64,000 bases of DNA from the NCBI GenBank assembly GCA_008632985.1, contig QPGO01000036.1, forward strand, positions 458,182 to 522,181, written 5' to 3'. Positions 458 to 64,000 of this stretch are shown piece by piece. The first letter of the stretch is position 1. Each line of letters starts with the position of its first letter. The DNA comes from Psammoneis japonica (Eukaryota). Both the position numbers and the translations under genes were made by a program. A model generated the notes under the pieces. It had not been told where the DNA came from. It saw only the letters and a list, made by a program, of their open reading frames with translations, and ran no database searches.

Positions 458-474
458 CTCTCTCTCTCTCTCTC
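458..474. repeat. (CT)n microsatellite
   Basis: ctctctctctctctctc read directly. Confidence 0.8.
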
Positions 475-991: not shown

Positions 992-2082
992 TTACATTTC
1001 CGCAATCAAATCCTCAAATTCGCCCTTCTTGAGATAAGTCAGAAACCCAACTCCCGTAGAGGCGTCGGGGCCCTTAACGTCAATGTCAATGCAGTGACAT
1101 TTGTCGAGATACTTGCGGATAACATCATCCTTCTTGTGCTTTTTCTTGGGCTCTTTCAAATTACCGTGGGTTAGGAGCGCCGCGATCAATCCCGCTACGT
1201 GAGGTGCGGCCATGCTTGTGCCGCTCATGGTCTGATATTCGCCTCCGGGCTTGAGCGAAACAACGTCCACTCCAATGCCGGCGTAATCAACATGAGGGTT
1301 ACTGTTAGAGAAGTAGGCGACAGGAGTATTGTCCTCCTTGCTGACGGCAGCAACGCTAATGGCTTCTTCCCAGAGAGCGGGGTAGCTGAAACAGAGGGGG
1401 GAAATTGGTCGAGAAAAGGAATTACGGTACAGTAGCAAAAATAATGAGACGAGCAAAAGAAGAGAGTGACAACCAAATGAAAGTCACAATTACTGAGAAT
1501 AGTATAAGAGAAACTAGGATGCACGTACCTGCGCTCGTTTGTAAGCGGGTTGTTATCGCCTTCGTTGCCGGCTGCACATACGACTATTACTCCCTGCTTT
1601 TCAGCGTACTGCACGGCAGTGCGGATGGCAACACTGGGCCATCGCCCACCCAAACTCATGTTGATTACATCGCATCCATCAAAGCAAGCCTCGAATATGG
1701 AGATAGAAATGGCTTCCTCGACACCGAAAGGCCCTTCTTCACCAAAGACGCGATAGTCATAAATCTCCGCATCAGGAGCCATCATGTGGATAGTTCCCGC
1801 GACATGCGTCCCGTGATCATCCACTGTCAATGGCGTGCCCCAACGAAACCACAGTTGCTTCTTTATCTGGCCGTGGAACCCCGGATGGGTCTCGTCCACA
1901 CCCGAGTCGATCACGGCTACGCGAACCCCCTTGCCTGTGAGACCGTCATCGCGGAGTTTCTGGCCTCCTGTAAGACGGATCCCGAGCGGAAGCTCTTCTT
2001 CACTTACGTCGCCACAGGCACTGCGGGAGACAGCAGGGCGAACGATGTCTTTGTCGGTAACGCGAATGGGTCCATCGGACAT
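992..2082 (-). CDS. Subtilisin-family (S8) serine protease, intracellular-type; 2 exons (2082-1529, 1385-992), intron 1386-1528
   Basis: Catalytic motifs VAVIDSG, HGTHVAGT, AAGN, GTSMAAPHV. Removing the GTACGT...TTTCAG intron joins NER-S-YPALW in frame. No signal peptide or prodomain. Confidence 0.92.
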
Positions 2083-5000
2083 GGTTGAAGGATTTTTTGT
2101 GTTCGTCTCGCGCTGCGATCTTGTGAGCGAATTTTTCTGCGATTAATCGTTAAATAAGAATTTATATAAAAAATATGCTCTGAAGAATAAATAATGTGGT
2201 TCTCATCTTTTTCCAAATCTACAGAGATAAAAAGTAAAATCAAATAATGACAATGAGACATGGCCACACAATTGAGTTCTTCACACCCGCCAAATTTGAA
2301 CTTCATGCGACACCAGACCGCGTGGATTGGAATTGAGGTGGGCCTCTCTCTAGAACCCAATCTCTCAGCTTTTGGCCAGCTGGAGGCCCTCTCCAGCCAG
2401 TGGCAGCAAGTGGGTGGCATGCACTGCACATGGCAGTGACAGGCCAGGCCAAAAGCACCAAACATGCGCAGAACTCATCGCGCAAACAGACTGCCGCTGC
2501 TGCTGCGGCTGCTCCTCTCCTTGTGGGGCATGTGTGGCAACACCCAATTGCTTGGGTGGCAAAGAGCAAAGGGAAAAGCAGATTGATGAGTTGTTGAGCT
2601 TTGAGATGAAATCCACTCCCCCAACATGGGGGGTCTGTGTGTGTGAACTGTGCTCAGAAACTTGCAATGAGAGCGAGACTCTGGTGCTGCTTGGCATCTC
2701 TTGAGGTGGCCATGCTCGTCAACACTCACATTTGCAATCACCACATCAAACTGAAACAGTTTTAGAGACAACACAAATGATGCATCTGGGTGCCTTTTGA
2801 CAGAGAAATTGAAGATGACTGGGTGGAAGAAAACAGCAACTCCTTGCTGCCATCTAAACAGCAGATGAGTCTCCATGCAGAGACCATTGCAGGAGCCAAA
2901 AGACTGGTGTCATGATGTTGGCACTGCTGTTGTTGTTCTTGTGAGCCAAGTGGCTCAAAAGCAAGCTGCATTGCATGATGCACATGGAGCTGAGAGCACA
3001 CACAATTGTTTGTGACAAACTGAAATCTTGCTCAAATCCTGTCACCTTTCATGAGGCAACTCTGCTGCTTGGCATGGCTGCTGCTTCTGGTTGCTGAAAT
3101 GAATGTGTGCCCTCCCTGGCAGAGGCAAGCTGGCTGTGTGCCAACCAGATCTCTCTGCAGCTTGAGATTTCTTTTGACATGATCTTCATTTCTGAGGTTT
3201 GTGCATGTTTCTTGCACACCTTGTTTCTTCTTGCAACTCAGTGGGTTGATGGGGTCCTTGGCTTTCTGATTCATTCTTGTCTGCTTCTGAGTTGACCTGT
3301 TGATGTTGTTGCTGCTGTCCCTGTTGCTGATGGTGCTTTTTGGGCTTTGTGGTGAACATTCCTGACAAACACCTGTTCTTCTGCAGCAACCTTGTTCCTC
3401 TTGTTTGTCGCTCCTTGCTGGCAGCTTGGTTGTGGTGCAACTTTGATGTGTTTTGAAACAATGCTGCACTGTGCACAAGGAAAAGCCAAAGCCACCCTCT
3501 GACAGATCTCACCAAGCAAGGCCATCAGACAAGTGGCAAAAGCCACACTCTGAAGCATGTGGATTTGTCAACACGAGAATGAGCGCAACTCTGGCAAGAG
3601 CTGCTCACCTCTGTCTGATGGGCTTGAGAGTCCCCTCATCCCAGATCAGCTCCAGGCATGATCCCCAGTGGGGAGATGGCACTGGTGGTCTGCTCCCCTG
3701 TGCAGGCACTGGAGCACTTGCAGAATGACAATGTGATCCACATGTTGAGATGACATGTCATCACCCCAGCTCAAGATCACATCCAAATGCCATCTCCAAA
3801 AGACTTCCAACACTGCCAACTTCTTTCAAATTCTGCACACAATGATCAGAAAATTAAGAGTGCAAGTCCCAAATTTCCATGTTCTTGCAACTGCATTGAC
3901 TGTGTGAACAGTGAGCCCCGCTTTTCCTTTGTTGTTTCAGTGACAAGATTCTGTTGATCTGAGCCCTGAGATGGCTGCTTGTGTGACTGTGCAGTGTGTT
4001 GGTTGGCATTCATTTTGCACCTCCTTTTCACAATGACATGAAGCCATTCTCTTTTGAGATGCTTGTCACAAAGTTCATTCTTCAAAAACCTCAGTTGTTT
4101 GAAAAAAATTCATCCAAGCATGTGTTTTGAAACAAGAGCACCACATCATGAAGCTGGCAGAAAGTTCATTTAGAAACACACATGCAGTGTGCCATTGACA
4201 GAAGTGTTGAACAGATGAAAACAAACACATGGGCATGCTGTGCTTCAAGCCTGCAAACACGTGCAATGTTTCAAACACAAGATTGGATGGTGCTGCAGCA
4301 TGAGTTGTCAATGAAGGGACTGCAAGAAAAGAAGCACAAAAGACATGTGCCCCACACACCTCAAAATGCAAGAAGAAAACAGATGGGGAAAACAAAAAGC
4401 ATGAATTTGAGGGTTGTGAGGTGCAACGTTTAACTGTGCCTGTGGCTTTCGTCCCTTCCTGTGCTTGTTCAAGACTCAAGTGGTTCTCATTGCATGATGC
4501 TTGTTGCAGGAACAAAAAGGACATCACCATGGCCAGCTGGCAGAGTGCCTTCCTTTGCACATGGGCAGCAGGTGGCCATCAGCTGTGCTGCCAGGAGAAC
4601 CCACAGCATCATTCCTGAGTTTTCCTGCCCTGATTCTGGTGAACAGAGACTTTGCTTCACCACTTGCAGCAACTCCAGCCAGCGCGCACAACCTGTGCAA
4701 GTTGTTGTCAGATTCAACATGAGCCCCGCTGGTGCACCACATGTTCCCCACTGGATTTTTCACCTTTTTGGAGCGGGGCAACTTTTTGTGCATGTCTTTT
4801 TGAAGCTCCCTGTGTGTGTGGAGGGAGCAGCACGTGCACCCCGCCAGCCATCTGATGGACAGCTGCACACTTTCCCACAATGTTGATGTTCTTGCTCCAT
4901 CCAGATGGAGCAACTTCAAACAATGTGTGTTGTTGTTCCTCCTCACATCAAGTTGCCCTGAGGCAAATGTTGACACAGCCCTTGTGTGCTGCATCTTTGG

Positions 5001-5884
5001 CTTTGTGCACTTTTTTGCACTCACATGGTCATGGCTGCACTCACAATGCCATTTGTGTCTCCATGTGGTGCTCATGTCAACAGAAGAGATCTCTGGAAAA
5101 ATCATGAGAATGTTGTTCACTGAGCTGTGCAACAGGAAGAGCAAACGCAATGCTGTTGCAGCTCAAGGGCAAAGCAAGCAGCCATGACCCACACCCAAAC
5201 TTGCTGGCTCAAGCAGTGACATCTCAAGCAGTGCAGCACCTCCCAACTGCTGGCCAATGGTCAGCTGCTCTCTGGAGAGGCAACGGGTGGCATTGCATCT
5301 TCCTGGGACTGGAGTTTGTTCTTCTGCTTGCATGGCACCACACCACAGCCAGAGAGAGAGAGGAGGTGGGATCCTTGCTCACAACCAACAAAGCTCTCTC
5401 CCACTCTGCTGTGTTTTGTGGGGATGGCATTGCAAAATGTCCATTGTCAAATGGTTTCTGTCCATGCATGGCACATTGTTTGCTGTGGGGCTTTTTAGTT
5501 TTGTCATGACAACACCGGGTCTTAAAGGGAACAGCATGGCCCCTTGGTGGGAATGACTCTTTGTGACCAAAACTTGGCACATCACAAAAGTGAACAACAA
5601 CTGGAGCTCCAAAACTGTGTGAACCCACTTGCTGGCTTGAACCCAAGCATGACTTCAAAACAAGGGCACAAGGCTCATTGCAGACATTGCTCACTCAACA
5701 CATTTCCCGCAAAGCTGAAAGAAAATCTTTGGTGTGTTGGTGCACCATGTGCATCACTGCTCTCCTGCATTCCGTCATTGTCTGCTTCATCTTCATTGCA
5801 TTCACAGCAACGGGTGATGCACACCTTCTCCATCATGACAATGCTGAGGAGAACCAACAAATCATCGTGAAGCTCATGTGGGAA

Positions 5885-6037
5885 AAGAACAGTGCCGACC
5901 CTCTTCCCAGGTGCAGCAGATTGTGCCTGTCAGACAAAGACTGCCAAGGAGCCCTTGTCTGTTTCAAGTGCAAGCATTTCAGCAAAGTTCCTGGATGCCA
6001 AGGAAAAGGAAAGATGAGTGTTGGATGCTGCATTTGA
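5885..6037 (+). pseudogene. Decayed frustulin-type acidic cysteine-rich (acr-like) domain
   Basis: PLPRCSRLCLSDKDCQGALVCFKCKHFSKVPGCQGKGKMSVGCC follows the diatom pattern LgxCxGDCDxDxDCxxxLxCFqRxxxxxVPGCxGxGxxxxDYC. Confidence 0.6.
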
Positions 6038-8519
6038 CAAGGAGATGCTGTCACAAAGTCACTCAAGTGCATTTGAAAGAATCAATTCAGAGATCAAAGA
6101 TGAGGATTGTTGTGCACTCAAATGTCAGACAGGAGCAACGTTTGGTGATGCAGATGTGAAGAGGATGAGCAAATTGCTGCAAGTCTGAAAGATTTGCTGA
6201 AGTGCTGACAGAGGTGTCTGTCTGCCTTTCTTCTGATGGCTCTCTGTTCCACTGGGTTTCATGCTGTGCTGCCAGGGTGAAAACGTGTTTCCCAAGGAAG
6301 CGCACCTTTGATCATGGTTGATGGGTGATTTGTTTGCCCAACATGTGACAGGCATCTTCACCACAGAGAAGACAGAAGCTCCAGACTGAATGTCAAAATG
6401 TGACATGTCAGTCACCAAAAGTGTCTTCTCATCATGCACTGCTTCATCCCATCTGGTCAACCAACTCAGCTCCAGTTTGAATGCTTTGTCAGTGTTGTCA
6501 GTGTTCCCACTCTGCAGTTCATGTGAAAACAGAGTCAGCATCACATGAGTGACATGAGTGCAACCCTCCACCTGGGGGTGGCAGTCACTGTGCAGACTGC
6601 AGCACAATGACTGCCTCTGGCACTGAACTTGTCTCCCCATGTGTGACTCTTGTCAGTGGAGAACTTGGGCTGACATGTGACAACCACAAACTTGGCAATG
6701 AAGACCAAGTGATTCCATCCCATCCTGCACAGAAGAGACAAACTGTGGTGGTTGATCTGCAGTCGAAGTCTCATCCAGCTTCGTGCAAAATGACTGGCTG
6801 AGAGCACTCTAATGCTGACATGTGCTTGGGGTGCTTGGCCAGGCAGATGCAGCCCATTGACCCATGTCAATGCCGTCATGTGGTTGACGAGTGACTGACC
6901 CAAAAATCTTTTGTTCTTCAACTGCTGTGGCCCCTTGAGCTGAAGCATTCCCATGATCCAATGTGGTGGTGATGAGCATGAAAAGGTGCTTCCACCATGG
7001 GCACCATGTGGACAATGCATTCCGCTGGACAGGGACGGTGCATGTTTTGGGGAAATGTCTGGCAGGCTGATGAGTTGTGTGGCCTGAAAACATTCATCAT
7101 TGCCTTGCCCCACTGGTTCTCAAAGCTGTTCTTGCCCACATGTTGAAAGTGTTGCAAGGTTGTCAGGTTTTTGGTGGCATCCTTGAAAAGTGATGCAAGG
7201 TTGCAAAAAAGATGATTTTTGTCCAGGTTGCCAAAAGACTCAATCTCCAAATTGCAGATTGTGGTTGTGACCCATGGTTTGTGTGGCTTGACAATGATGT
7301 CATTGCCCGCCATTGTCGTCCATCATTGGCTGAGACATCATTTGGCAGCAGCATTGGAGAGAACGGGTGGCAACTGTGCTTTTCATTGCAACTGCCCTGA
7401 CCCCATGCACTGTGCCAGCACAATGAGCATCACCATGTTGAGTGCAACAACAAGCACCTCATTGGATCTTCTCTCAAGAACAAGCACATTGCATTGCTGT
7501 GTGTGTCAAAAGATGAAGTGGTCCAAAGGTTGAGCACTCCAGCAGTGCTCACAGCACAAAATTGTGCAATGCTGTTCATGATGTTGTTGAACAAAGCATC
7601 TCAGTGCACACACAAGCAAGATTGCAAGTTGATTGCACAGCTTTGCAAGCAAAAAGAGGAAGGGAATGCACAAAAGAAGTGCACACTGTTGGCACAAGCA
7701 GCCTTCATGACAGCACCTGGAAGAGTGGAAGCAACCACCAGTGCACAGAGTCATGGGCATCAAGCCTTGACTCACAAGCAAGAACAAGAGGTGCACATCA
7801 TGCTGGCTTCATTGTGTGCGTGTGTCTCCCCCCTGACCTGCCTCCATGACCAGCCAGAGACAGATGGGTGGTGAGACAAAGTTGGGATTTGGGGCTGATC
7901 ACTTTCAAAACAACTGAATTTGCAAGTGGTCTTTGCACACAAAATGGCATCCAATGACTTTCAAAGGCTTCAGGGTTGACATTTGAGGGAGGTGGTGGTT
8001 GTCCCCACTTCTTTCACTTGCACTTTGCTCCAAAAAGCTTGCAACTGCCATTGTGCAGCATTTCAGATTGGCACCTCAGGCATCATCCATGCCAAGCTTG
8101 CCACAAGCACACACACCAGGCCCACGTGTCTCTTGTTGTCAACTGGGGGCTTCACTGTGTTCCACATTGGCCAATGTAAAAATTCCTGTCATCAGCATGC
8201 TGGCACCAATGAAGAAGGTCTGGCCTTGAAACAAGTCTCTGGGAGAACAAGGCTGTGTGGCACTGGCAACCTGCGCACACCAATCTTGTCTTGCGTGCCT
8301 CTTCTCTCTCTCATGGAGCTGGCCAGTGACCTTTGTTGTGCAACAAGCTGTTGTTGTCAGGCAAGGTTGGCACTGGCTGCTGTTCTCTGATTTCTTTTTG
8401 CACCAAATTCTTTTGAGTCCTTGCAAATCCACTTTTCTCAACAATCTGTCCTTGCTTGCAAGCCTTTGATTCAAATTGCGAGTCTTGTCACTGCTCAAGA
8501 AACCCACAACAGAACAGCA

Positions 8520-9740
8520 TCATTGTCACATGGAGTGAAGCAATGATCAAGAGATTGGGAATTTGGGCACCATCGCCAAGGGTTTCATTGCTGTGATTGC
8601 AACAGAGCTTGAAGAAGACATTCTTGTTGATGTCAAAACAGAACTTCAAAGCACCTTTGGAGCCCTTGCCAAAACTCGATTGCATTCTTTCCTTTGCATG
8701 CTGCGCTGCCGATGTCAACTCACCAGGCCCCAGTTGCTCCCCATTGACCAAACACACTCAAATCAAGAATGGCAGGCATCTGCTGCAAGAGCTCATGGCA
8801 GAAGCGGATGGTGGATTCATTCAGATTGATGCAAGCATGGACACAGATCACAGTCATGTCAACATCACAGCCAGATCCAACTTCAGTGGCAAGAGTTGCT
8901 GCACACTCATCAGGTTGGAATGCTTGTGCACACAGCACATGTTGGATGCTGTCTTCCCTGTGATGCTGCTGGGATTTTCATGATGGATCAAATTTTAACC
9001 TGTGTCAGTGCTGAAACTCGCTCTGTGCCCCAGAGCAGCTTTCAGCTTGATCTGATGCAGGCAGCTTCCATTGTTTGTGGGAGCCCCCCATCGTCACTTG
9101 TGCTCATTGAGGAATTTGGAAAACGAGCACACGGACTCTCTGGAGTGCTGCTGGCTGTTCAACACTCATTCATCTTGTTTTGCTGGCATGCTTGCACCAC
9201 TGAAGGCACCAGCCCGTCATTTGGTGTTGCTGTTTTGTCAGCGGAAAGCAAAGAAGCTTTCTCGCATGAAATGCAAAGTCATTTGCATGACCCATTTCCT
9301 GGAAGTCTTCAGCTTGGGATTGCTTTCGGATGGTGCAGATGGAGGTTGTGCACGCCAATGATGGTGCACATTCCAGAGTCAAAGAGCAAGGATGAAGAAG
9401 AAAACTTTGGTGCAGCGCCCTTGTTCAAACCAGAGCAGGGTGTTGCCAAGTCGTTGGCAGGGCTTGTGTGTGCCAAGAGAGCTGGCGCGCAAACAAGAAA
9501 GTCCCAAATGGAGGAAAGGGAATCCTTGTTGCTGCCAAAGAAGATGGGTGCACCATGCAACTGCTCAAAGAAAGCATGAGTCTCCCAGAGCTAAAGCCAG
9601 AGGTGAAGGACGTCTTGTGCATGTTTCTGGGAGTCAACTCATTGGCAAATGCCACAGATGAACAGCTCAAGGTGCTGGGGTGTAAACTGGCTGCTGTTTC
9701 CATCCTGCAGCAGGGGCGCTGCAGTTGGGGGCAGCTTGCA
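8520..9740 (+). pseudogene. MSH5: MutS homolog 5 (MSH5) pseudogene, ATPase half, multiple frameshifts
   Basis: Across frames: LDCILSFACCAAD, IKNGRHLLQEL, Walker A remnant NFSGKSCC, QVGMLVHTAHVGCCLPCDAA, SVPQSSFQLDL, SLVLIEEFGK..GTSP, CMTHFLEVF, PLFKPEQGVAKS.AGLVCAKRAG. Confidence 0.85.
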
Positions 9741-12700
9741 CAGACAACAAAGAGACAAGACATGTGGGGTGATCAATCCAAGCATTTCTGCTTTTTCTTT
9801 TTTTTGGCACTTCTTGTGTTTCTTGCCTTCAGTCCTTCATTTCTTGGGCAGGAGTTTTGATGCAAGGGAAAGTGTGTTTTGCAGCAAAGGGACCAGGCAA
9901 AGCTGGCAGATGAAAATGATGTGGCCTGGCATTGCAATTGCAGAGGCATCTCTGTCCTTCCAAGGTGATCCTTTTGCACACAGCATCAAGCACAAAATGG
10001 TCTTGGAACTCTCTCAATGGCACACCAAGTGATGATGCAGACTTGCACTGCAAATTGAAAAGTGGCTGATGCTTCCACCAATGATGACATTCTGTTGCTT
10101 TGGTTCAGTGCCTGGAGCAGACAACAGATGATGCACAGCTTGTGGATTGATCGCTGCAACACACAACACACAAAAGTGCCATGTGCAAGGAGCACAAGCT
10201 TCAACACCACAGAGGGCAAGAAAAGCTGGCACTCCAACAAATGTTGGGAAAGGAAGTGGGTGCTGTTGCAGCCGCGCATGCTGGAGAATGCTGGAGAATG
10301 AAAGAAAGAAGAAAACTGGGGTGCAAGCCAATGGAACCACACCTTGGCAATTGTGTGTCTGTGACAAGATGATTGGATTTCATGAACACATGCATTCGTG
10401 CACAACTTTGGCCCATGCATTGCCGCCGCAGTGACACTCTCCAGTGCATCTTTCTGCAGCACCATGCAAGAGCCAATGTGGTGACACCATGAGCCCATGA
10501 CACCACAAGCCCAATGGCAAACACAGAATTCCCCACAAGCAGAGCTGCAAAGTGCATGCAGGTGGCGACAAGCATTTGACTTGAGTGGCAGTCTTGTCTC
10601 CTGCGTGAACGTTGTCTTGATGTGGATGGCGGGTGCAAAACGACAGCTGCTTGCTTGCCTCCTCTTTGCTCTTGTTTTCATTTTTGATGTTTTTTCAGGA
10701 TTTCCACACACACACCAATGCTTCCTTTTTCGAATTTTTGCAAGATCTCATTGTCCCTTTTGTCTCAAGTGAGGACCATGACAAAAGACATCAGATTGCT
10801 TGGCCACTCTGCCAGATTCTTTTGCAAGCTGCTTGCTTTTTCCATGAGGCATGTCCACCCATTTGTTTTTGTTGTGGATTTGCCACGCAGAGAGTTCATT
10901 GGCTGTAAGAGCCAATCACAGAAACAACTGCTCCTCCATTAATGCACCTCCGCATGAGCAGAAGGACTGCACTGCCAGCATGTGGGTGCACAGCTTGAAG
11001 CTGTCCAGCACCCAAAGACGTGCCTGATGTGCACAGGATTGGAGTGTGCAAAATTTTTGGTCATGATTTGGCGGGACTTGTGGGCATGAATCGAGTCCGC
11101 CAACTTGTGTGATGCCCGCGAGCCCCGCCCACTCAGCCGACTTGTGACACAAATGGTGTGCAGGCTGTGGGCAAGATTTTTTGTTTCAAAATGCATTGTG
11201 CATTGTTTGTGCAGTGGAGGAGTGTTGCAATCACCCTCAAGACATTGAGCGGGCTCTCAGTGCCAATGGCAAGATAAAGACAGTGCAAAAATGGCCTGTC
11301 ACAACCCTGGATGACAATCTGCCCTTGTTGCCACCCGGTGAAGAAGGGTTCTGGACATGCAATCCAGCGTGCTTTCCTTGTCCCTTTTCACTTTCATTTC
11401 ATGTCATGCCTCCAGACAATGCCCATGAAATGTGGCCACAATCAAACATCCAAGACTTCTCAACAGCAAGATCTGTTTCTTGCAAGCCAAACCAATGCAC
11501 TGGCAAGATTTGCCAATGCTTTCTGAACAAGGGTTTTCACATTTCAGTGCTGACCTGCACCTCTCTTGCATTGTCAGCTTGATGGTCAACTTGCACCCAG
11601 CAAACAGCTGCTGGCTTCATGCATGTCTTTGCTTTTGTGACAAAGTGTCGTGTGTCAACATCACAGAGTGAAGCCAAGAGAAGCTCAATGGCATGCTGTG
11701 AGAATCAACAATGGCTGCACGCTCTTGCTGCAGTCATGCAAGGACTCGATGCAGCAACTGACTGATTGCAGCTCTGAGCAGATGATGAAGGATGCCAATC
11801 TCAGCCTTTGATTTGATTTGTTCACAAACCACAGAAATGTGAACTGTCCTGCTGCTTTGCAGAGGTTTCATGTGAATTGGCAAATCTCATTGTCATCAAA
11901 CTTGAACTGATCCAGAATGGCAGATTCAAAATTGCGCTCTTCGAGAGTCTGCTGACGTTGCAACTTTCAATGCACTCAATCCTCTGGTCGAGGAGTGAGC
12001 AGGGTGTCTTCATTGAATGCCCATGTTGGAGTTGTTTTGGCAGCTGCCAATTGACTCATGAGGGCTTGTGTTCTGCATCAAGCTTGCACAGACATGCCTG
12101 TGAAATCTCCTGATGTGTTCAATGCCGTTGTCTGCACAATTGTTGTCAGCCATCCCTTGGCTTGAGTGTCAACTTTAAAGACATGTTGCATGCTTTTTCA
12201 AAAGAACAACAAGATTCAATGAGATGTCTTCTGCCCTGGAACGTGCCCTCAAAATCACCAAAGCTTGAGCATGTCAGGAACAATCAACTTGCTTGATCAG
12301 CTGTGTCAGCATCCATCCAATTTGAAGCGGCTGAGTCAGGCTCTGTGTTCAAAAGATCATCCTTTGCCACAGCTTGGGCAGTTGGCCAACCAATGCTTCA
12401 GATTGCAAAGGGGAAAACGCAGCTTGCAGATTCAATCTTGGACAAAAGAAGTCACTCAACAAATCATCAGGCAGAAGGAGTGTTGCACAAACATGGTGCA
12501 CTGGAAGCAGATGCCTGCCACTGAAGGAGGAACTTCCCATGTGGAAAAACTTTCTTTGCTTCACAACAAGTGCACACACTGCCTCAAGAATCTGTTGCGC
12601 TTCCTTTTCCTCTTCTATAAAGACTTCCTGACCTTCACATCCTGTGGCAACTGCAGGATGTTTGTCGGCAGTTGGTGGATGTTGCTTGCACCTGACTCAA

Positions 12701-13129
12701 AGCAGTCTGGGATGGCAGTGCTTGCTGGTTGCTCCAAGCAGCTGTGGCGTGCATTGGCGCTGAATCTCAGATGACCTGTTGTTGCTCATTTTCTTTTCCT
12801 TTTTCTTTTGCTTCTGCTGCTCTTGTCCAAATGACACTGCGTTGAGTTTGCACCACACAGCATTGTTGCCTCATTCACCACCAGCATGTTGAAGAACAGA
12901 GATGGCAACTGAGGTGCAAGCCTGCAGTGGTGGACTTGAATTCATTGGCCATTGCAACATCATGCAATGGTCAACATGCAGACAAAAAAGACTCACACCC
13001 AGATGTGGTGTGAGCAGCAAAACAGCTGGGGGGTGCTTTTGGGCTTGTCAGGAGCTGTGCGGAAAGAGAGTCTGCCAACACAGAAGCAGACAGACATTTC
13101 AAAATGCAGCAATTGTGCTGTGGGAAGTT

Positions 13130-13560
13130 GAAACTCAGAATTCTGCTGTGCATGGAGTGCCTTGGGAGGGTTCTTGCTTTGCACAGGTTGCGCGCATCAT
13201 CGATCAGTGATGGCACTGTCATGGAGTGCATGTGAACAAGTGGACACTGTCTTGTCACAGGAGGTGGAGACGGCAAGGTTCATGCTTTTTTGCTGACAGA
13301 TCTTGTCGACTTCTTGGAAACTCCAGATGGGACGACGATTGCCCCACTTCGCACCTGGTTGCATCACCACTTGTGGCAACTGCGCTCAAGGTGTTGCCCG
13401 GGGACAGAATGGCAACAGCCTCAGATGACTGCAAGGTTTCAATCATTGAACTCTTTTCAGATGCAGCAGCTTTGACTGTTCAAATGACACACTCATTGCG
13501 TTTGTTAGAACACCCGGCTGGTCGCCAGTTTGCCAGTGCGGGTCAAGGAAGCATGTGCAC
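13130..13560 (+). pseudogene. Decayed WD40-repeat gene fragment
   Basis: VATALKVLPGDRMATASDDCKVSII resembles a WD40 blade; only one convincing repeat. Confidence 0.4.
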
Positions 13561-14614
13561 AATTATCTTGAGGTTTGCGCAGTGCATCAATCATCACAGA
13601 TGGGCATCATTGTGAAACAACCAAGTGTTGACAAAACAAACGAGGACCAGGTTTTCAGGAATGACAACAACTCACGTGTCAACAGCGCAAATCAGAGCTG
13701 CACGGACATGGCAGATTGACAACACCAATCAAGAGGTGTTGCGTTTGGCTGCAGGCGGAACTTGACGAAGCCAATCAGGGTGGAAAAAAGTCAACAACAA
13801 GCTTGTGCCAAAGTTGAACAAAGAGTCTTCTTGTGGCAACAATGCACCACAAAAATGAAAATTGTTCAATTGTGATCAGAGTGCAGACTGCTTCTGCAGA
13901 CCCTTCGAGACATCTTGCGGAGGTTTGATCCCTTGTTTTGCAAACCATTGCACACTTTTTTGGACATGATCAAGTTGCAACTCCACTTGAAATTGAGGAT
14001 GCAATGGCAAAAAGGTTCAACTTGGTTCCCACTTTGCACGAGAGTGCTTTCCACATGTTGACAAATTCAGCCAGCAGTCAGGGACACAACAACATGCATC
14101 AAATGTGGAGATCCAGGTCAGTTAGAAAAAGACTGACATCAGCTTGATCCTGATTGGAAGAAGAGAGGCAAAGCAATTGTCCATGGAGGAAAACCCTGTT
14201 TGTTGAAGACTCACCGTGAAATCAAGAACCCTCTGTTGATCTCCACACTCATGCACGTCCTCATCAGCCATTGACACTCAGGTCTCAAGTGTGGCATGGT
14301 CAAGCAAAGTAAAGTGGCAGCACAATGTTGAACACTTGTTGTTGGACTTCGAACCGCAGATGGCATCACCAATCCAGCAAAGGCAAATGACAAAGCAGGG
14401 TGCAGTGACAAAAGAAGAATTGCCACCACCACTCTCTGGTCCAAGCATCTTTGATTGTTTTGCTTTTTGAATGCAACAGGATGTCCCAGTCCCAGTTCAT
14501 CATGTCAAGGACCACTGCAGGCACCAAACTAATTAGATTGAAACAGTCGTGCAAGTCTCTGTGAAAGTCAGTGCCCTGATTGGGAACGCCGGGAAGCACT
14601 GGAATGCACGCAAA

Positions 14615-17240: not shown

Positions 17241-17264
17241 GAGGCGGCTGGGCGGGAGAGGAGG

Positions 17265-41369: not shown

Positions 41370-44300
41370 GGGTTGTCGACACCATCTGAATTGGCATATC
41401 CATGCTTCTTTGTGCCATCGGAGTGTGTCGACTGTCGACTGTGTGGATGAGGTCAGGTCTTCTTTCAAGAATAACGCCTCACGACTTGCATCTTTGGACC
41501 ACCCATTCTTGACCGCCCGCTTCCACGATTGCTCCATCTTTGTAGAAAGCAATGAGCTCACCCCCATCATCCAAGCCCCACTCTCACTGATTGTGGCTTG
41601 GGCATGCAGACATGGCACCGTGGCTCGGACTGACAAGACCACCATTGATGCATCGTCTCCCATCCAGATGGCAAAAAGAACAAGGGCTTGCTGCAACAAC
41701 ATGAATGGGCAGCAACCTTTCTGAGGCAATGGTGGCATCAGCATTGCTGCATGCTAGACTGCACATGCTTCCATTTCAACATCAGAAAATGAGTTGTTGC
41801 AGATGTGCTTGTGCTCCCTCTCAGCTGAAACATGGGACAAGAACAAATCATGCTTTCATTGTCTAAAACAACAGGGTGCCTTCATCATTTTTGCAACCTT
41901 CCAAGTGAGCCTCCAGGTGCTCATCAAAGTTTGGGGTGAGTTCAAAAAGACTGTTCTTTAAAAGGTTTTGCATGAGACCTGTCACATCATCATCTTGTTT
42001 GTGCAGTTGGCACTCTTTCTGCTTTGTCCATGAATCACTCCTCCAGCCCAAATGCACTGGGAGGTTTTTCATCAGGAAACTTGCAGATGTGGCGCCACTT
42101 GTGAATGGCATCCAGCACACCCAGGAGGAGCTGATCTTTGACATCCTGAATGTCATTGATGAATGGTGTTCACTTGTCTTTGGCATCAACAATGACCACC
42201 TTCCAATCACATTCGCCTGCGTCAATCACACACAAAATGCCTGGCACCTTCACTTTTCAGCAACAGCCTTGACATTAGATTGCAACTTCTTTGTGCAAAT
42301 GACACAGGTGTGCTTGACTCAATTTGTTGATGTCATCTTTGACTTCTTTGTTGCACACAGCACACAGCACAGAGGAGGGCACCAGCAGGGCATGATGGTT
42401 GTGCAGCAAGAAATGAACCAGATGGTCGCTGCCAGGGCCGGCCGGAAGCCAGTTTGCACACCACCTTTTTGGGAGCAACAACTGCAGCAAAGCTCCATTG
42501 TCTTGAGAGTTTGCAAAAGAAAACACAAGTGACTTCAATCCTGTTCATGGGTGTCTTAGACTTCTCTTGAATGCAAGCAACACTCACACAGTGCATTTCA
42601 ACAACTGGGGGGGGGGGGGGCTGTTGCAAGTGCTTTTGTCATCTCCTGCCAGCAGAAATGATTGTTGCACTTGTTGTGGTGGTCAGTGCAATGGACTCTT
42701 GGGGCAGCACATTCTCTTTCTTGGTTGGTGTGCATTGTTTTGTTTCAGCAACTAGATCACTCAATTGCCGCAAACAGCCAAGACCGGGCACTTCATTCAA
42801 GAAACAGATGCTGATGCAAGTGTTTCTTGGCATGCTGGATTTGGAAGCACCTTTGTTGTGCCTGAGATGCAGCCAGTCTTGTTGTTGAAAGCATTGGCCT
42901 GCGCCACTTTGCCATGTTGCTCTTCAGCAAAGCTGCTGCTTTTGATGCTGCAATGATGACATCCAGCAAGTGTGGATCCCTGCTGAGAGAACTGTCTGTG
43001 CACACTCCAAATTTTTTTAAGCTCTGGTTGGCTGGATCAAACCCAACCATGCTCACAGGCAATTTCAGTGTCACCAGCTGTGTTTGTTGACTTGTGAGAA
43101 GGTGAGTTGGGTGAGAAAGTCTTGGCAGAGGCTTCAAGAACTGGTGCCCAATGTCAATTGCATGCAATGGCAGCACCACAACACACCCACAGAGATGCCA
43201 CAGCCTCCAGCAAACAAAGCAGATGTGCTGTGGCTTTTTGTCAATCCTTTTGAGTTTGCAAGTCATTGCTTCATTCTCCAACAGAGCAGCTGTGCAGTTG
43301 TTTGTTTGTTGCCAAACCACCCACACTAGAGCTTTTGTTCAAGCTCAGTCACCACAACAGAACCACCACAAGTGAATTTTGGCATGTCTTTCAATTTGGT
43401 GCAAAAAAGCCAGCAAAATGCCGGTGACTTTGATCAGCACATTTTGCTGGTTTTCATGGCTCAGTGCATTTCCACCTGACTGTGGTCATTTGCAACAAGA
43501 CAGCCTCCCAGCTCATTGTTGCCATTGTTGCTTTTTCTTCAGCTGTGCGCAGCATCACCACATGCACAAGCAAGCTGCAGAGTTTGGTGCCACCATTGCA
43601 GCAAACCCACAGGTGCTCTGAGAGTGCACCTCACAATTCACAAAGTTGCTGCAAAGTCAAGGGTGCAGCGTGTGTGCCCATGGCAGACAGACTCAGTGGC
43701 CAGCTGATCTTTCTTCTTCATCTTGCTCAAGTGACCTCCTCCTCTCTTTTTGCAAAATGTGACCACTGTGTCATCATCTTGCAGCAGGACTGGCACTTCA
43801 AAAGTTTGTGTCCTTGATGTGGCACATGGCCATTTGCAAGTGAAGGTTTGTCCAGTGCAAAACAAAAAAAAACAACCAAGGAGCTGTGGTGCTGCAATGA
43901 GTGCCAACAACCATGCAATGTTTGGCCAGAAATCAACTCCCAGCAGAAGTTCCGGCCCAGGGGTGTTGTCTGCCTGGGTCAGGAACCAGCATGCTCAAAG
44001 CATAGAGTGGCAGGGGCCCAACAACTTGCACACCAAAAAGAAAGAAAAAAGAAACCACAGTGCCAACCAGTGCCCCACAATGCTTGCATGTCTGTGCACA
44101 TGATGTTGTTGGGAAAAAACCAACACTTGTGATCCATTGTCTTTGCAGCAGGTTTAACAAGGACTTGCCTTTGTCTTGTTTTGCTGTGTGGCCATCACCA
44201 GAGCCGGCCATGGTGCCCAACATGCATTGTCACAGTTTGCAATGCTGGCTGCACTTTGCCATGGGCTTTTGCACTGCTGGATCCTTCTGCAGATTTGTCT

Positions 44301-44760
44301 GAGTGAGAAGGGGCATGTTCAGGCACAAAGCTGCTCAAGAATGGAGCTGCTTCATTTGCAGCACCAATCAGATCAGAGGCAAGGGCAAGTGGAGACAATT
44401 GGCTTTTGGATGACTGGATGCCATGGGTTTCAGAAAAGCTCATGGTTTTGTCTGGTGATTTCCCCCATCCTTGAGGAGCCACTGACATTCCTCCTGCTCA
44501 ACCTCCTGCACCAGCAAACACTTTGTGCAATTTGATGACCAGAACATTGCACCCACACTGCTCATCTTGTCATGATCTTCCTTTGATGAGGCTCAAATCC
44601 CTTCCAAAGCAAGAGCAGAGAGAGCAGACCCAGCACTGAGTCCATCGAGAGTGTTGTTGGAGCGGTGACCTCTGTTGAGCCATTTGTCATCAACGTCCAT
44701 GTCTCTAGAATGCTGGGTGTTCTGTCAAGAAGAAGGCAGGGGGAGAAAACTGCTTGTAGC
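41370..44760. other. TpA/CpG-depleted block of decayed gene copies
   Basis: Near absence of TpA; TG/CA excess; abrupt return to normal at the COG6 3' end. Confidence 0.9.
41863..42260 (-). pseudogene. Soluble inorganic pyrophosphatase (family I) pseudogene, C-terminal half
   Basis: Manual translation: KVKVPGILCVIDAGECDWKVVIVDAKDK*TPFINDIQDV..GVLDAIHKWRHICKFPDEKPPSAFGLEE*FMDK (family pattern VKVLG....IDxGExDWK..YKxPDGKP). Confidence 0.85.
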
Positions 44761-47106: not shown

Positions 47107-47579
47107 GGTCAACAAAATAATAAGCCGGTCATTTCTCAACATCGCGCGCACAACCAGCGAGATCCTCGCGCGCTGCGCCTGCTGCGGAGCCACAGAACGT
47201 GTGCAGCACAGTCAAGTTGTTGTCCAAGAAAAAGGGGCAGCCAGCACGCAGCAGTTGCCTTTGCTCTTTTGACAGCAGCTGGGCTGCGACAAAGTGTGTC
47301 CCCAGCTGCCACTGCTCTTTTCTATGACAAATGAGGGCAAGTGCCAGCAGCCACCAAAGATGCCAACACCCCCCAATGAGGAGCCTGTCCATCTGGGATG
47401 CCAATGATCTGGGTCTGACCGTCTGCCATGTTCTGGGTGTTTCTTGACTTTGATGCCAGATTTTTGTCAACTTGTGAGCCAATTCTCTCCTTAAATACAA
47501 TGTGAGAACCATGTAAGTTTATGAGCTTCTAAAACCTAAATCGCTTCTCACTTTTAAGTGTGGTCATTCCTTTCACATG

Positions 47580-50500
47580 ATGCAGACCCACACCCCAATT
47601 GACATTTGGGGTTTCTCGTTCTTTTGACACAAATGTTGCTGCTTGCAATCCACCCTCCTTTTCTGCCAACTCGTCCTACATTTTATCTCATTGCTGTGCC
47701 ATTTTCAAATCCAAATTCCCAATTGCCACACGTTGTTGCATCTAAACCGCATCACAGAATGTTTTTTTTAATTTTCACTCATCCAGACATTGTTGTTTGT
47801 TTCAAATTAAGTTTGCACACCAGTTTGGTTGGTGGCCATTGCGGCATTTGCTGCCGCTCCATTGCCTGCAGCCACCACCTGCAATGGCAGGTCCTCTCCC
47901 ATTGGCGCCGCCCATCCTTCCTCTCTCTCCTTTCTTTTTCCCTCTCTTTTGCGTTTCTTGTTTTCCTCCTGAGACAAGTTTGTCTTCTCTCGCCTTCTCT
48001 CCTTGAACCATGCACCGAATCCCTGGTTGTTCTCTCTGTCTTTCACCACCCACTGACACAGATCATTGCACTTCTTGATCCCCTCCTTGCTCCATTCTTG
48101 GTTCCTCTTTGCCGATTCCCCTGCCGCCTGCGCTGTGCACTTTGCAGGAGCAGCATCTTTCACAGTCAGCTTTCTTCTCCTTGCAACATTTTCTTCCTTT
48201 TCCAATTTCTCTGCCGTGTCCTTCACCTTGCTGCAGCAGTTCAAGTGCACTGGCAGAGCAAACGCCTCCGACGAAACCAAAAGCCATTCCTGAAGCATGT
48301 TGGTTGTGCTTCTGCCAAACTGCGCTTGTCCCACCACCGTCGGCACCACAGTTTCCAAGAACCATGCACATGTGTCCTTGTCATTTCTTCCCTTTATCAA
48401 GTCTTTGCAAGCCACCAGCAATCCCTCTAAAGCAGCAACTGCACAGACAACAGCAAAGGAAGAGACACTCATCCCGTCAGACAATCGCCTCCAACACAAT
48501 CACCGGCATGCACACATCTGCTTGCCTGTCATTCTCCTCCCAATGTTGTCCTGCACATCATTCCTCTTTCGGTTGAGTTTGGTCCTGAACACCTCTTTGC
48601 ATTCTTCCCAGAACTTCTCCGGTGAAGATGCCATGCTCCTCAACTCCTGCAGAACCAATTTCATGCAATCTCCTCCCACGGCAAGTTCATGATCGAAGAT
48701 CATGAACTTGCGACATGGCCAAACACTCTCATTGACAACCTCAGTCAACATCGATGCTGTCAATTTCTCGCTCACCGCTGGTGCACGATCCAACACAAGA
48801 CATCCCTCTGTGGGAGTCACCACCGAACTTGAATTGCCACCTGCATGCTGGAATCTGTTCAATTCCCCATGTTGTTTCTTTGTGCATGCAACAAGGCCGC
48901 CACCGCAGGACTCATGGTGACTTCATGTGACACCACACAGATCAATCCAACAATTGTGTTAGTTCATCAGCAATTCTTTGTCATGTCCTTTCTCAATCTC
49001 ACTTGCCACTGGAAGTTGCGCTTCCTCCCTCCGTCGCTCCTGTGAGAACCGCATCCTCCATTTTTTTTACCTTCCCAATGGCTTCCTCTTTTTTGGAACT
49101 TCCGTCCTTTCCTGTCGCTTTATGAAAGGTGGGTTGCGAAAAGAATGCACTTTTGCATGTGATTTTCTTGGTTTTGTCGTTGCTCGTGTGTCCTCTCTTG
49201 ATTCAAACAGGTCTTTGTGTCATTTTTGAGTTCTCATTCCCAACCCCATGTTTGTGTTTCTATCAACGTTTCACTGTTTTGAATTGTGCACCTTTTTTGG
49301 CCAATCCAATGCACCAATGAAGATTGCCATGTCATTTGGGTCAATGCCAAACAATGTGTCACATCTCCTCATGTCAATGCATGCATTGCGCTTCCTCATT
49401 GATGCAACATCTGCTTCCTTTGGCACATTGAGTCGCGTCAAACCTCCTGTTTGTTGTCCCTGTCTTAATGGGTCATTCCCTCTGCTTCCCCGACACCATG
49501 TTTGTCCAGCTGCTCTCTCTGTTGCCCAAATTTTCCAATCCACTTGAATGTCCACTGAAGTGTGTCATTGTCACCAAGACATGGTTGTCGTGAGTCGTTC
49601 CCATCACAGGAATGCGTGTTCCCTCTGTTGCAATCACATGCCGCCAATTGATGATCAAATTGGTCATTTTGCTGGTGGTGGTGTGGAATCACACGGTGGT
49701 GCGGCAAGCTTTGCCTTCTCCACCGAGGTTGTTTGTAACCCCGCTCTCTTTGCGGCACAAATTCGAAGCCGTTTTAATTTCCTCAACGTTGGTGGTGGTG
49801 TTGGCGGTTTTGCGATTGCCTGTCGTCTGCTTGTTCCTGCCTGCAATGCCCACAGCATCGAGTTCCACCATCCCCGTCATGATCTTGGCTCTCAGTGGTG
49901 CAATGCCATGTGGCACAACAATGCCTGTCGCTTCCCGACCCTGATCAATCAGGACTTCCTCTCCGAAGACGATGCTGTTCGTCGGTTGTGCCGTCTGAAC
50001 AACTTAAAGATTTTCTTCAACAACTGCAATGGGCAAATTGCTTTTTGACAACAACGTGGCACAGAACCAACTCAAGGAGATGCTGTCCAGCGAGTGTCCT
50101 GAAGGCACTGTTGTCATTTCACTGGACGTGATGTTTTGTGTTTGTGCGCACAAATGGAGGCATGAAGCATTCTTTGTTCCTGCCTGTCCAGACGATCCAT
50201 CGTGGGGAGGCGGTGTCGACAGGCACCTGCTTCACAAGCACACCAAGAAAAGAGACGATGCCGTGGAGACCAGGCATTCCACCAGGAACGACCCAGGGTC
50301 TGACATCAAATGTAAATTCAAGCCTGCCAAAAGTGGGTGACTTTGCAATTTCACTTTGTTTGCAATGCAACTGTCATCTGTGTGAGCAATGCATTGTCAA
50401 TTGGCCCTTTGCACAAACCCACTTTGCACCTGCATCAACTTGCTGCTTCGCCAGTTTTGCATTCCAACACATGCTTGTTCACATGCTTGCTGTGTTCACA

Positions 50501-52455
50501 TGCTTGCCATGTCAAAATCATGGACTGGACACACCATGTTCGTTTTGTCAGGCAAAGCTCGTTGCAACATTCTTGCGTCAAAAACAAATGCAGTGCCTGC
50601 TTCTCCAACCAGCAATTGTTTTTCCAAACCCAACCCAACCAGTTGTCTTTTGCGTTCCTTCTCATTCAATGTCACCTCACAACTGTCCGGCCACATCTCC
50701 ACTTCATGCAAAATTCTCATTGCTTTGTTGACAAAGTCAATTGCAACACCTGACCGACGACACAAATGCAGCAAACGTGCCATGGGTGCGATGCTGGGCA
50801 AGTGGACTGGAGGTGCATTGAAATCCTCATCGGGTGCGACATCGCGTGGCGGGCCAAGAGGGTTGTGTTGATCGAGGGAGGAAACAGGATCTTCCATCGG
50901 ACGGGAAATTGAGGGGGGGCCACAACTGCCATTGCGATGGTCGGCTCCAATGAACTCGGGAACATCCACAGGACTGTCCTCTCCAAGGGCGGACACACCA
51001 TCATCTGCAAACAAAACAAATCGGCGGACATTCAGGGAGGCTGCACCAGCGGCAGCAAAGTTGGCAGCTGAGCGCAATCGACCAGAGCATCTGACGGAGG
51101 GTGGGCGCAGTCCACTTCCGGCAGAGGGAGGACAAGCTGGAGAAGAATTGTCCGTTGGTGTGGGAGGAGATGGAGCTGGATTCCAAAGGACTTTGGGGAG
51201 GGGAGGAGGGGGTTCGTCGTTGGAGAAACCAAACCCAGCAGGATCATCATGGTCGTCCAGTGATTCATCATGGTCGTCGTCTGGAGGGGGAAGTGCGCGG
51301 GCGGCAGTGGAAGATGCGGCATGCAGGCGAAGGGACATTTCCTCTTTTTCGCAGCAGGGTGAGTGCTTCTGCAGATGAAGGGCGATGTTGGAAAAGAGAA
51401 CATGGCAACGGGGACATTTGGGTTTGTTGGTGTTGGATCCAAGGGAGCCGATGGAGGCAGAGTCCAGAGGATGAGAGGAAAGAGATGTTCTGCCGGATGA
51501 AGAAGACAATTGGGTTGCATGGCGCAACTGTGTCAATGGGGGATGGAGACCAGATGCTGCGGTGCAGTGCCAAGACAGGCGACACTGCATGTTGTTTTCA
51601 GAGTCAAATCCACGTTGTCCACAACGAGGACAACTAAAAGACTTGGTGGAAACAGCGGAACGGAGGCAGTTGGTTGCGATGTGCCTGCTGAGGCCACGTT
51701 CGGAAAAGAAACCGGTTCGTTTGCACCATGGACAAACAAGACCATCAGACAACATGGCCGATGTACACAGACGAAGGAGTTGAGAAGAGAATTGAAAGCA
51801 AACAGTGGGTGTGGCAACAATCACTTGGGGACATGGTGAGGGCAGAAACACAGAGATGCAACGTGCGGATGGACGGGGAGGAAGGATGGAATGGGCAGGG
51901 AGAGAAAATTGAGAAAACAATTAGAATCTAGATTGACGGACACAGGCGGTGATTTTGATCCAGAAAGTTGATTAACACACAATCCAGAAAATAAAACAGA
52001 GACGCGTTCCAGGTCTGGGTGGGACCTCGCACTGCTGAACTGTGACATCGACAGTTTTTTGAATCGCGTCGTATGTCGCGCACGTAGATTTCTACGTGAT
52101 TTTGGCAAAATTTTGCATCATTTTACAGTGCAAATGTCAGGCGATCCATTCAACAACTTTTGACATTTTTTTCTTCTGCGCCATTCTCGAGTGTCTTAAG
52201 AATGGTGCAGGGCAGGCGTGTTGTCCAAAACTTCGAGTGCGAACAGAGACACATGTGCTGCAAACTTGGCCGTTCATTTCATGTCGAAGATGAGTGCATC
52301 CATTGACCAGAGTACGAGCTGCAGAGCTCGCACGTAGAATTCTGCGGGGCAAATGTCACAAAAAGTCCCACCTGGGACTGGAACCCATCCAGAATTAAAC
52401 ACACACACAAGGCTTGTCGGATGGGGGGGAAAATGGTCAAATTGAGGAACACAGA
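47580..52455 (-). mobile_element. Decayed, internally deleted DNA transposon (Plavaka/CMC-like, tentative)
   Basis: C2H2-like fingers (CPWCKRTGFFSERGLSRH, CPRCGQRGFDSE, CPRCHVLFSNIALH) at 50.5-51.8 kb. Accessory ORF with KFWEECKEVF..LNRKRN and VSSEAFAL..PAKCT..EWSKEGIKKCNDL..V.KDR at 47.8-48.9 kb, a pattern I associate with diatom DNA transposons. No DDE core recognised; ends uncertain. Confidence 0.5.
52001..52389. mobile_element. 389-bp MITE, copy 2 (inverted relative to copy 1); 4-bp TSD CAGA
   Basis: CAGA at 51997-52000 and 52390-52393; same TIRs and length as 22564-22952. Confidence 0.9.
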
Positions 52456-63200: not shown

Positions 63201-64000
63201 TCAGTGATCATGATGTCCTGGAGTTCAGGTGGTTCGTCGAATTTGTGAAACAGGTCTTCTTCCGGAATTCTCGGGTCCGGATGTTTCGATTCTGGTGCCT
63301 CAAACACGGTGTCCTTGGTCTTTTTGTCGATGTCATCGGGTGCGAGTGCTCCACCTTTTTCACGTTCCGAAATGCACCTGACTGCTCCTCTCAGGTTTCC
63401 TCGCAGCACCATTCTGTTGAATGTCTTGGCACGCTGCTCTGGCGTCTCCTCCTTCTGAACGGTCTTCAGATTGCTCTCAAGCAGCAGTTCGGTTGCTTGG
63501 ACCAACATCTTGTGCTTGTCTGTGTCCCAGTCATCCACGCGCCTGGTGAGCAGGGTTCCAATGTCCTTGGCTCGTTTTGCGTTGCGGCCCCACTGCAAAA
63601 TTGCTGCCTGGAACACCACGAACCTCTCCGAGTTCCACTTTTGCATCTTGACTCCATGTGGCAACTCTGCTGATGTTCTGATGAACCGTTTTCCTGCGGA
63701 ACCGTTCGGAACATCGCATCGTTGTGATGGACAGGGCATCAGCCGGTGCCAATGCTCTTGCCAAATTTTGTCATCCGATGTTCCACCATCCAGATGGGAG
63801 CCATCATTGAGGTGACAGGTCTCGCCGTGTGCCTCATGTGTGATTCGTTCCGCATCCAAATTGAAGTCGTTGGGTGCATTGTCGGGGTCGTCATGTGACG
63901 GAATTTTTGCTCCCTCCAAGCTCTCCTTGTCTTCCGGCTGCTCTCTTCCCCTTGAGGCAGTGTCAACCTCCTCACCATCGCTGCCCTCATCAGCATCCTT
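57210..64000. other. TpA-depleted block (unclassified relics plus CRE-like element)
   Basis: TpA nearly absent to the window end. Confidence 0.9.
60843..64000 (-). mobile_element. CRE-like non-LTR retrotransposon (RT + CCHC + restriction-like endonuclease), inactivated; 5' part beyond window
   Basis: RLIALDKNPGARPAGMGE, CAGLEAGIEGAIH, VDASNGFNEENR, GVTQGDPL, WCADD, CNGCA..HALQCKKGG..HDDVRD, GDLLSKGFW..TVMDVR..DTDAKS..EKKRK. Confidence 0.9.

Follow-up and report, generated by a model that had tools for sequence, protein, structure and literature searches.

Hypermutation of foreign DNA at the TpA dinucleotide only has so far been reported from one organism, the chlorarachniophyte (Rhizaria) Bigelowiella natans, in one preprint whose main text proposes the responsible enzyme only as a candidate (Mettrop et al., 10.64898/2026.01.13.699255). 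According to that main text, 231 of 302 new mutations in B. natans mutation-accumulation lines fell in an integrated giant virus and virophage, and the mutations of these viral regions were nearly all A>G or T>C, every one of those lying at TpA. The genome is also described there as carrying 124 TpA-poor, CpA+TpG-rich clusters, with TpA-poor genes enriched in reverse transcriptase and transposase (RT/DDE) domains and mostly without annotation, and the authors propose an ADAT2-like DNA adenine deaminase (10.64898/2026.01.13.699255). Here we analyzed a window, by which we mean the whole 64,000-nucleotide stretch of contig QPGO01000036.1 of Psammoneis japonica, that contains four blocks nearly devoid of TpA.

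Set beside the main text of the preprint, the window extends this kind of process to a second lineage, a distant one, in which it has run to completion. Common to both are a change restricted to TpA, giving TpG or CpA on either strand, its occurrence in blocks (which here, where they could be assigned, are foreign or dead DNA), and the resulting TpA-poor, CpA+TpG-rich footprint. The host differs, being a diatom-like stramenopile here; depletion is deeper here (TpA observed/expected ratio, o/e, of 0.00-0.04 vs 0.45 in the nucleocytoplasmic large DNA virus region of B. natans); and de novo events were measured there, whereas end states only are available here. In our literature search, hypermutation of the TA>TG/CA type did not turn up for any stramenopile, diatoms included. 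Within its main text (figures and supplements lie outside this statement), the preprint treats neither flank context, nor CpG, nor diatoms, the words "context", "flanking" and "trinucleotide" occurring 0 times each (10.64898/2026.01.13.699255); relative to that main text, the flank rule described below is an addition. In the reading we consider probable, silenced foreign or repeat DNA has been hypermutated by a host process that changes A:T to G:C at TpA and reads the flanking bases, with a DNA adenine deaminase as the likeliest agent.

Repeat-induced point mutation (RIP) of ascomycete fungi resembles this process in being defence-like, confined to blocks, limited to transitions, dinucleotide-specific and active on both strands, and in killing transposons; however, RIP converts CpA to TpA and leaves AT-rich DNA, whereas here TpA becomes CpA/TpG with G+C near 48%. 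The C>T change at CpA with an excess of TpA that marks RIP was absent from the blocks, where the direction is opposite and G+C is 47-50%. APOBEC3 (C>U) and ADAR (A>I) are likewise deaminase-type systems, known from animals, that cause context-dependent transition hypermutation of selfish elements (retroelements and viruses), but their substrates are single-stranded cDNA or double-stranded RNA and only one strand bears the changes, whereas both strands are changed here and a 3' pyrimidine is favoured.

TpA-poor blocks with sharp edges

Dinucleotide counts per kb and per 200 nt revealed four stretches nearly without TpA (YTAR, mixed and RTAY are classes of TpA by the bases flanking the TA step, Y being a pyrimidine and R a purine):

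about 2300..14560, unstranded: TA-poor block 1; TpA o/e 0.00-0.04, CpG o/e 0.07-0.44, CpA/TpG o/e about 1.6-2.1; 24 TpA
41545..44700, unstranded: TA-poor block 2; 10 TpA (9 YTAR, 1 mixed, 0 RTAY)
47125..54450, unstranded: TA-poor block 3; CpG only half depleted; contains a TA-free open reading frame (ORF) of 474 aa
57210..64000, unstranded: TA-poor block 4; extends past the window end

Across the blocks, TpA o/e was 0.00-0.05 and both CpA and TpG were approximately doubled (o/e 1.6-2.1), with a G+C content like that of the neighbouring genes. CpG was uneven, with o/e values of 0.07-0.44 in block 1 and 0.64-0.81 at 62000-64000. Block boundaries were sharp to about 100 nt; for block 1, the last dense TpA lies at 2245 and TpA density is back after about 14540-14630. 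Genes outside the blocks were normal in composition.

Contigs of run X1 (about 60x word depth) cover 3530-13453 of block 1 in four pieces of 1.3-3.9 kb each, with 2, 5, 3 and 9 letters differing, indicating that the block is real sequence and not an assembly quirk. These data bear on the proposal that the blocks reflect an artefact, namely base-calling or assembly error at modified bases, or else selection for TA avoidance in functional sequence. In certain long-read data, modified bases do lead to A>G and C>T miscalls that are systematic; set against this, no X1 piece departs from the block by more than 2-9 letters, neighbouring genes are normal, and the changes destroy conserved catalytic residues (see below), which runs counter to selection. 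We therefore regard artefact or TA-avoidance selection as very improbable. Among the candidates tried and rejected were miscalling of modified bases by nanopore sequencing, selection favouring sequence free of stops or of TA, and avoidance of piggyBac/Tc1 targets.

On 1-20000 of the window, 1506 X1 contigs align at 80-99% identity, indicating that much of block 1 consists of repeats from diverged families. Transitions make up most of the differences among these contigs and are balanced in direction (A>G 237, T>C 232, C>T 236, G>A 263; each transversion 31-58). At 2366-2367, the window reads CA where an X1 contig reads TG (depth 55/55). This pattern would be expected if one ancestral slow TTAG site had been resolved differently in two haplotypes or strains, and would hint at a recent or ongoing process.

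Contigs of run X2 match the block stretches 5790-6171, 11761-12222 and 13865-14599 at only about 80-85% identity, one of them being 16 kb long and one having a depth of 304, and at positions where the block reads CA or TG these paralogues have CG. One X2 contig omits the 143 nt at 1386-1528, whose CT..AC ends correspond to GT..AG on the minus strand; this suggests that X2 contains transcripts, and the expressed paralogues may be the intact parents of the pseudogene pieces in the block.

Flank dependence of TpA loss

All NTAN counts were taken within the 64-kb window. The complete listing for 2400-14560 gave 24 TpA, comprising 16 YTAR (TTAG x6, TTAA x5, CTAA x5), 8 mixed (GTAA x4, ATAA x2, CTAT x1, TTAT x1) and 0 RTAY. 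An earlier note on this DNA had counted by eye about 21 survivors, about 13 of them YTAR and the rest GTAA, ATAA, CTAT or TTAT, with no RTAY; the full listing moves the totals slightly upward and leaves the rest standing, with all eight of the non-YTAR survivors in the mixed class. The ten example coordinates given in that note are all true TpA, two of them shifted by one base (4171 and 4431).

We compared these survivors with ordinary DNA, taken as the 26,503 nt of non-block sequence in the same window, which holds 1121 TpA (202 YTAR, 568 mixed and 351 RTAY, or 18/51/31%); the two distributions differ significantly (chi-square p = 5e-9). The dinucleotide composition of block 1 itself predicts 32/49/19% YTAR/mixed/RTAY, against which the observed skew has p = 6e-4 and the probability of 0 RTAY among 24 is 0.006. 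A transposon baseline, consisting of 32 metagenomic loci whose products are relatives, not mutated, of the reverse transcriptase found in block 4 (see below), yielded 4405 TpA at 21.5/49.9/28.5%, indicating that the skew in the blocks was not inherited from an odd ancestor. The same skew was found outside the region covered by the earlier note: the other TA-poor blocks, pooled, retain 62 TpA (35 YTAR, 24 mixed, 3 RTAY; p = 2e-13), giving 86 survivors over all blocks (51 YTAR, 32 mixed, 3 RTAY). Over all blocks, per-kb survival was 0.37 for TTAA, 0.25 for CTAA/TTAG, 0.11 for CTAG and 0.03-0.07 for the mixed tetramers, and among RTAY it was 0.02 for GTAC, 0.006 for ATAC/GTAT and nil for ATAT (0 of 91 expected-scale sites).

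These counts were described with a per-strand model, in which the rate of TA loss on each strand is set by the 3' neighbour and survival needs escape on both strands. The loss exponents for 3' A, G, C and T were 0.48, 0.99, 2.34 and 2.23 with the window baseline, and 0.48, 1.07, 2.19 and 2.12 with the transposon baseline. A uniform loss rate was rejected with either baseline (likelihood-ratio test (LRT) 97.7 and 83.5, respectively, 3 df), and the 3'-neighbour model fits all 16 NTAN tetramers. The preference for TAY and the resistance of TAR, as claimed from inspection, are thus borne out quantitatively. As a rule of position +1 the claim proved incomplete: A at +2 also protects, with marginal survival of 0.27 for TAAA and 0.22 for TAGA vs 0.04-0.12 for other TAR-N words, and adding the +2 position improved the fit by an LRT of 47-68 (3 df). 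The most resistant duplex word is T-Y-T-A-R-A. Since RTAY is palindromic and presents the target on both strands, it vanishes; mixed steps present the target on one strand, and YTAR, above all TYTARA, remains.

If TA was lost in one burst, the A is approximately 2-5x more prone to change in 5'-TAY-3' than in TAR (on the other strand, the same holds for the T of 5'-RTA-3'); if the blocks instead represent an equilibrium of creation and destruction, the same counts imply a ratio of up to about 20-fold, and the data fit either. New TAs arising from block CA/TG would be about 25% RTAY by class counts, and 3 of 86 are observed.

TadA and ADAT2/3 share with this process a target A that follows U/T, and the natural site of TadA is U-A-C-G. 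The analogy with that site drawn in the earlier note holds for the 5' T and the 3' C, but not beyond: TAT is lost as strongly as TAC, and G at +2 is without effect (TAC-N survival of 0.012 for TACG, 0.007 for TACC and 0.011 for TACT).

Direction of change, both strands, and separation from CpG loss

The direction of change was read from a reverse transcriptase (RT) in block 4 and a relative of it in block 1:

60938..63919, minus strand: hypermutated RT ORF; 994 codons in a single frame with 5 in-frame stops
3447..3725, plus strand: RT-element fragment, C-terminal part, of the same family as the block 4 copy (DNA alignment); tblastn of relatives matches 3516-3686/3701

The block 4 ORF has homologues 48-50% identical to it, several with PF00078, and the tblastn match lies in one frame; Pfam found no family in the mutated ORF itself or in 57000-60937. 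None of its 11 conserved Tyr columns is kept, 8 having become Cys (TGY) and 3 His (CAY), and the catalytic YADD now reads CADD; each of the RT relatives keeps 6-10 of its 8-10 conserved Tyr columns. That TAY is exactly the pair of Tyr codons, as had been pointed out, is therefore visible at the protein level. Six conserved Leu have become Pro (CCA, from CTA), and of the five stops four read TGA in columns of conserved Arg, which is what a CGA codon would give. The sense strand shows both A>G and T>C, indicating that neither DNA strand was spared. Agreement of the ORF with the family consensus is 71% over the conserved columns (80-88% in its nearest relatives), and this shortfall is about the size of its TA- and CG-type changes. 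The change of TpA to TpG/CpA as described in the B. natans main text is thus found here in the o/e values, the 11 of 11 Tyr, the six Leu>Pro and the mass balance given below.

One ancestral Tyr is His in the block 1 fragment and Cys in the block 4 copy, indicating that each copy was hit independently, after insertion; the two copies further show 4 TG<>CA double differences. Among the metagenomic RT relatives, 0 of 79 loci are TA-free (lowest TpA o/e 0.20, median 0.57), in a set whose WYADD search pattern selected against mutated copies.

The block 4 element invites an explanation at the RNA level, in which transcripts of a retroelement undergo A-to-I editing by an ADAR-like or ADAT-like enzyme and the result is fixed by reverse transcription. 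One block is indeed a retroelement, and RNA-editing enzymes favour a 5' U, a point also made in the Discussion of the preprint (10.64898/2026.01.13.699255). We find this route scarcely tenable, as T>C (Tyr>His x3, Leu>Pro x6) occurs beside A>G on the sense strand, and the changes run through one continuous 12-kb block (block 1) that includes a MutS pseudogene as well as DNA that resists annotation, whatever its orientation. ADAR, moreover, favours G at the 3' side, whereas G here is among the protected neighbours (exponent 0.99 vs 2.2-2.3 for C/T), so that an ADAR-type footprint is not what the blocks show.

Mass balance per kb gave the same direction, the TA plus CG loss of each flank class equalling the gain of the matching TG/CA class; the mixed classes, for example, lost 20.3 + 19.0 and gained 27.4 + 13.3 per kb. 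At 62000-64000, RTAY and YTAY both stood at 0 per kb (baselines 22.0 and 19.3) and YTAR at 2.0 vs 16.6, whereas RCGY/YCGR/YCGY stood at 23.0/31.0/29.0 vs 22.8/32.0/29.8 per kb in unmutated relatives. TA is gone where CpG is intact and the ORF otherwise near-conserved, indicating that TA loss is separate and fast, and came first. The flank dependence of CpG loss is weak and inconsistent (p = 0.012, 0.04, 0.17 and 0.82 across the four blocks), and this is presumably a second, slower process with almost no flank dependence, the decay of methyl-C.

Could the TA loss itself be slow, the product of a regional mutation or repair bias in heterochromatin (e.g., G:T mismatches always repaired to G:C) that accompanies CpG decay and needs no dedicated editor? 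Older-looking blocks lacking both TA and CpG would agree with this, and Escherichia coli offers a parallel in the depletion of CTAG by biased short-patch repair. We nevertheless judge it improbable: TA has already gone at untouched CpG in an ORF approximately as conserved as its relatives, the TA flank rule is extreme whereas CpG loss is little flank-dependent, the block edges are sharp to about 100 bp, and the rates given for B. natans in the preprint main text are 1e-7 to 1e-6 per site per generation, in bursts (10.64898/2026.01.13.699255).

Which base of the pair is changed was approached through the Tyr codons of the RT ORF. Those in YTAY context gave 5 TGY and 1 CAY, and those in RTAY context 3 TGY and 2 CAY, which is the expectation for the target "A in TAY" (or "T in RTA") and, at these small numbers, supports it moderately. 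A>G in TAY and T>C in RTA concern the same base pair, and sequence cannot separate them; a thymine-modifying enzyme (e.g., TET/JBP-type oxidation to 5-hydroxymethyl- or 5-formyl-uracil) could accordingly mark the T of 5'-RTA-3' in silenced chromatin, and its mispairing with G would yield T>C. Changes on both strands, together with the palindromic nature of the best site, RTAY, would suit an enzyme that reads the duplex. Even so, we consider thymine as the changed base unlikely, given that no known mutagenic pathway of this type erases a dinucleotide to 2% of expectation and that the window itself offers nothing bearing on thymine modification. Furthermore, the only experimental precedent for the signature was read, in the preprint main text, as adenine deamination (10.64898/2026.01.13.699255).

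Proposed mechanism, other contents of the window and significance

In the adenine-deaminase mechanism that we propose, the blocks would be foreign or repeat sequence that has been silenced (a retroelement, a further piece from its family, a pseudogene and a large share that resists annotation), in which a host process turns the A:T of TpA into G:C on both strands (TA>TG or TA>CA). This process would read the flanks, favouring TAY (or RTA) and being impeded further by A at +2; its likeliest agent would be a DNA-acting adenine deaminase converting dA to dI, which is copied as G; an enzymatic deaminase had been put forward as plausible in the earlier note. TA loss would occur fast and first, and CpG decay later and slowly. 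From the pattern of changes we infer an enzyme, its aiming, and its action on DNA rather than on an intermediate. The TA process makes no new stops; what it removes is every Tyr codon and many of the codons for Leu, Ile and Val, so that reading frames remain open although their proteins are dead. No deaminase domain was found among the 20 large window ORFs scanned.

The remaining contents that bear on what is targeted are the following:

8830..9579, plus strand: MutS/MSH-like pseudogene piece, domain V; Pfam MutS_V E 3.7e-9 (six-frame read-through), PDB MutS/MSH2 E 3e-8
50496-51920, minus strand: TA-free ORF of 474 aa in block 3, without Tyr and with several CxxC...H motifs
52001..52391, unstranded: insertion of about 390 bp resembling a miniature inverted-repeat transposable element (MITE), with terminal inverted repeats; within block 3, with normal TpA and CpG
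17100-23480, unstranded: GC-rich (58-63%) element of about 6.4 kb with repeated termini

The MutS/MSH pseudogene is frameshifted, its Walker-A part lying in another frame at 8597-8983, and it shows Tyr>His and Arg>His/Cys; MutS_V was the only family that Pfam found in the six-frame read-through of block 1. A giant-virus insert, for which MutS is the sole hint, was considered and rejected. The 474-aa ORF is probably a hypermutated gene of a mobile element. A second copy of the MITE-like insertion, 80% identical, lies at 22562-22952, and the copy in block 3 either arrived after the mutation episode or is not among its targets.

The GC-rich element has termini of 95-96% identity (17110-17240 = 17402-17532; 17265-17397 = 23346-23478), and its X1 depth is 470-950 (about 8-15x) vs about 60 in the flanks. 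It is intermediate in composition, with TpA o/e 0.15-0.37 and normal CpG, and its 76 TpA (23 YTAR, 43 mixed, 10 RTAY) are skewed in the same direction as those of the blocks (p = 9e-4). The RTAY share thus falls with TA depletion, from 31% in ordinary DNA to 13% (10/76) in this multi-copy element and 3% in the blocks. Its ORFs gave no Pfam family, and neither did those of block 2; the element may represent transposons that the TA process has struck in part, or that have adapted to it.

Several observations weigh against the proposed mechanism. Confinement to foreign DNA is seen in the RT element, the RT fragment and the MutS pseudogene, with normal genes alongside, yet most block DNA has no detectable family: Pfam searches of 97 ORFs from blocks 2-4 and the GC-rich element gave no family and two sub-threshold matches, tying the blocks to mobile or dead genes in part only, and for the 474-aa ORF neither a homologue (E<=1e-5, proteins of 260-830 aa searched) nor a Pfam family was found. 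A trigger as in RIP, where duplications above a threshold length are attacked, would agree with the many 80-99% X1 relatives of block 1, but the element present at 8-15x is only partly TA-poor and the MITE-like insertion is untouched; that these repeats in or beside the blocks are not TA-free argues that repeat status alone is no trigger. Run X1 may derive from the window's own source sample, so that it speaks for accuracy while its independence is incomplete. Composition gives inconsistent estimates of the changed pair (27.4 YTGY vs 13.3 RTGR per kb over all blocks; 9.8 vs 11.9 in the CpG-intact RT element), leaving the assignment of TAY vs RTA to rest on 6 Tyr codons. In most tRNA substrates of eukaryotic ADAT2/3, A34 is followed by a purine, and fungal TAD2/TAD3-dependent A-to-I mRNA editing likewise has a purine after the target A; the 3' pyrimidine found here is the opposite. 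Finally, the whole case is drawn from end states of sequence, from which we infer both enzyme and deamination.

The window is nuclear DNA of a eukaryote. The genes around the blocks include a full-length COG6 (44878-47193, minus strand), a subtilase, an RNA methyltransferase and two histidine phosphatases. COG6 is 46-49% identical to that of named diatoms (Bacillariaceae, Cylindrotheca, Pseudo-nitzschia, Seminavis) and 50-54% to environmental sequences, and its best protein-atlas cluster is mainly Bacillariophyta. Window genes are long and nearly intron-free, with one visible 143-nt GT..AG intron. On the minus strand at 28313-33106 lie four consecutive ORFs of 323-429 aa, one with a weak match to Fea1 (iron-responsive protein; E 1.7e-4, sub-threshold for Pfam), which may be a tandem family. 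Self-comparison also revealed two palindromes with a perfect centre, at 27664-27746 (83 nt, 92% self-complementary) and 59268-59376 (111 nt, 74%).

For annotation, these results mean that Tyr-free, Cys/His-rich proteins in open TA-free ORFs are dead elements and not genes. The flank rule (TAY >> TAG > TAA, with A at +2 protective) provides a quantitative fingerprint that can be applied to published de novo mutations and to candidate enzymes in vitro. More tentatively, and with less than even confidence, we suggest that algae of the diatom lineage possess a natural DNA adenine editor that works at the duplex level, best at palindromic RTAY and blocked by TYTARA, is aimed at newly silenced transposons and foreign DNA, quickly stripping every Tyr codon from them, and is homologous to the Bigelowiella system. 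If this is true, it would be a source of naturally sequence-specific adenine base editors, and an ancient genome-defence common to the SAR (stramenopile, alveolate and rhizarian) supergroup. Diatoms are major marine primary producers, and the process may occur widely among SAR algae, where some of the "dark" DNA that resists annotation may be its product.

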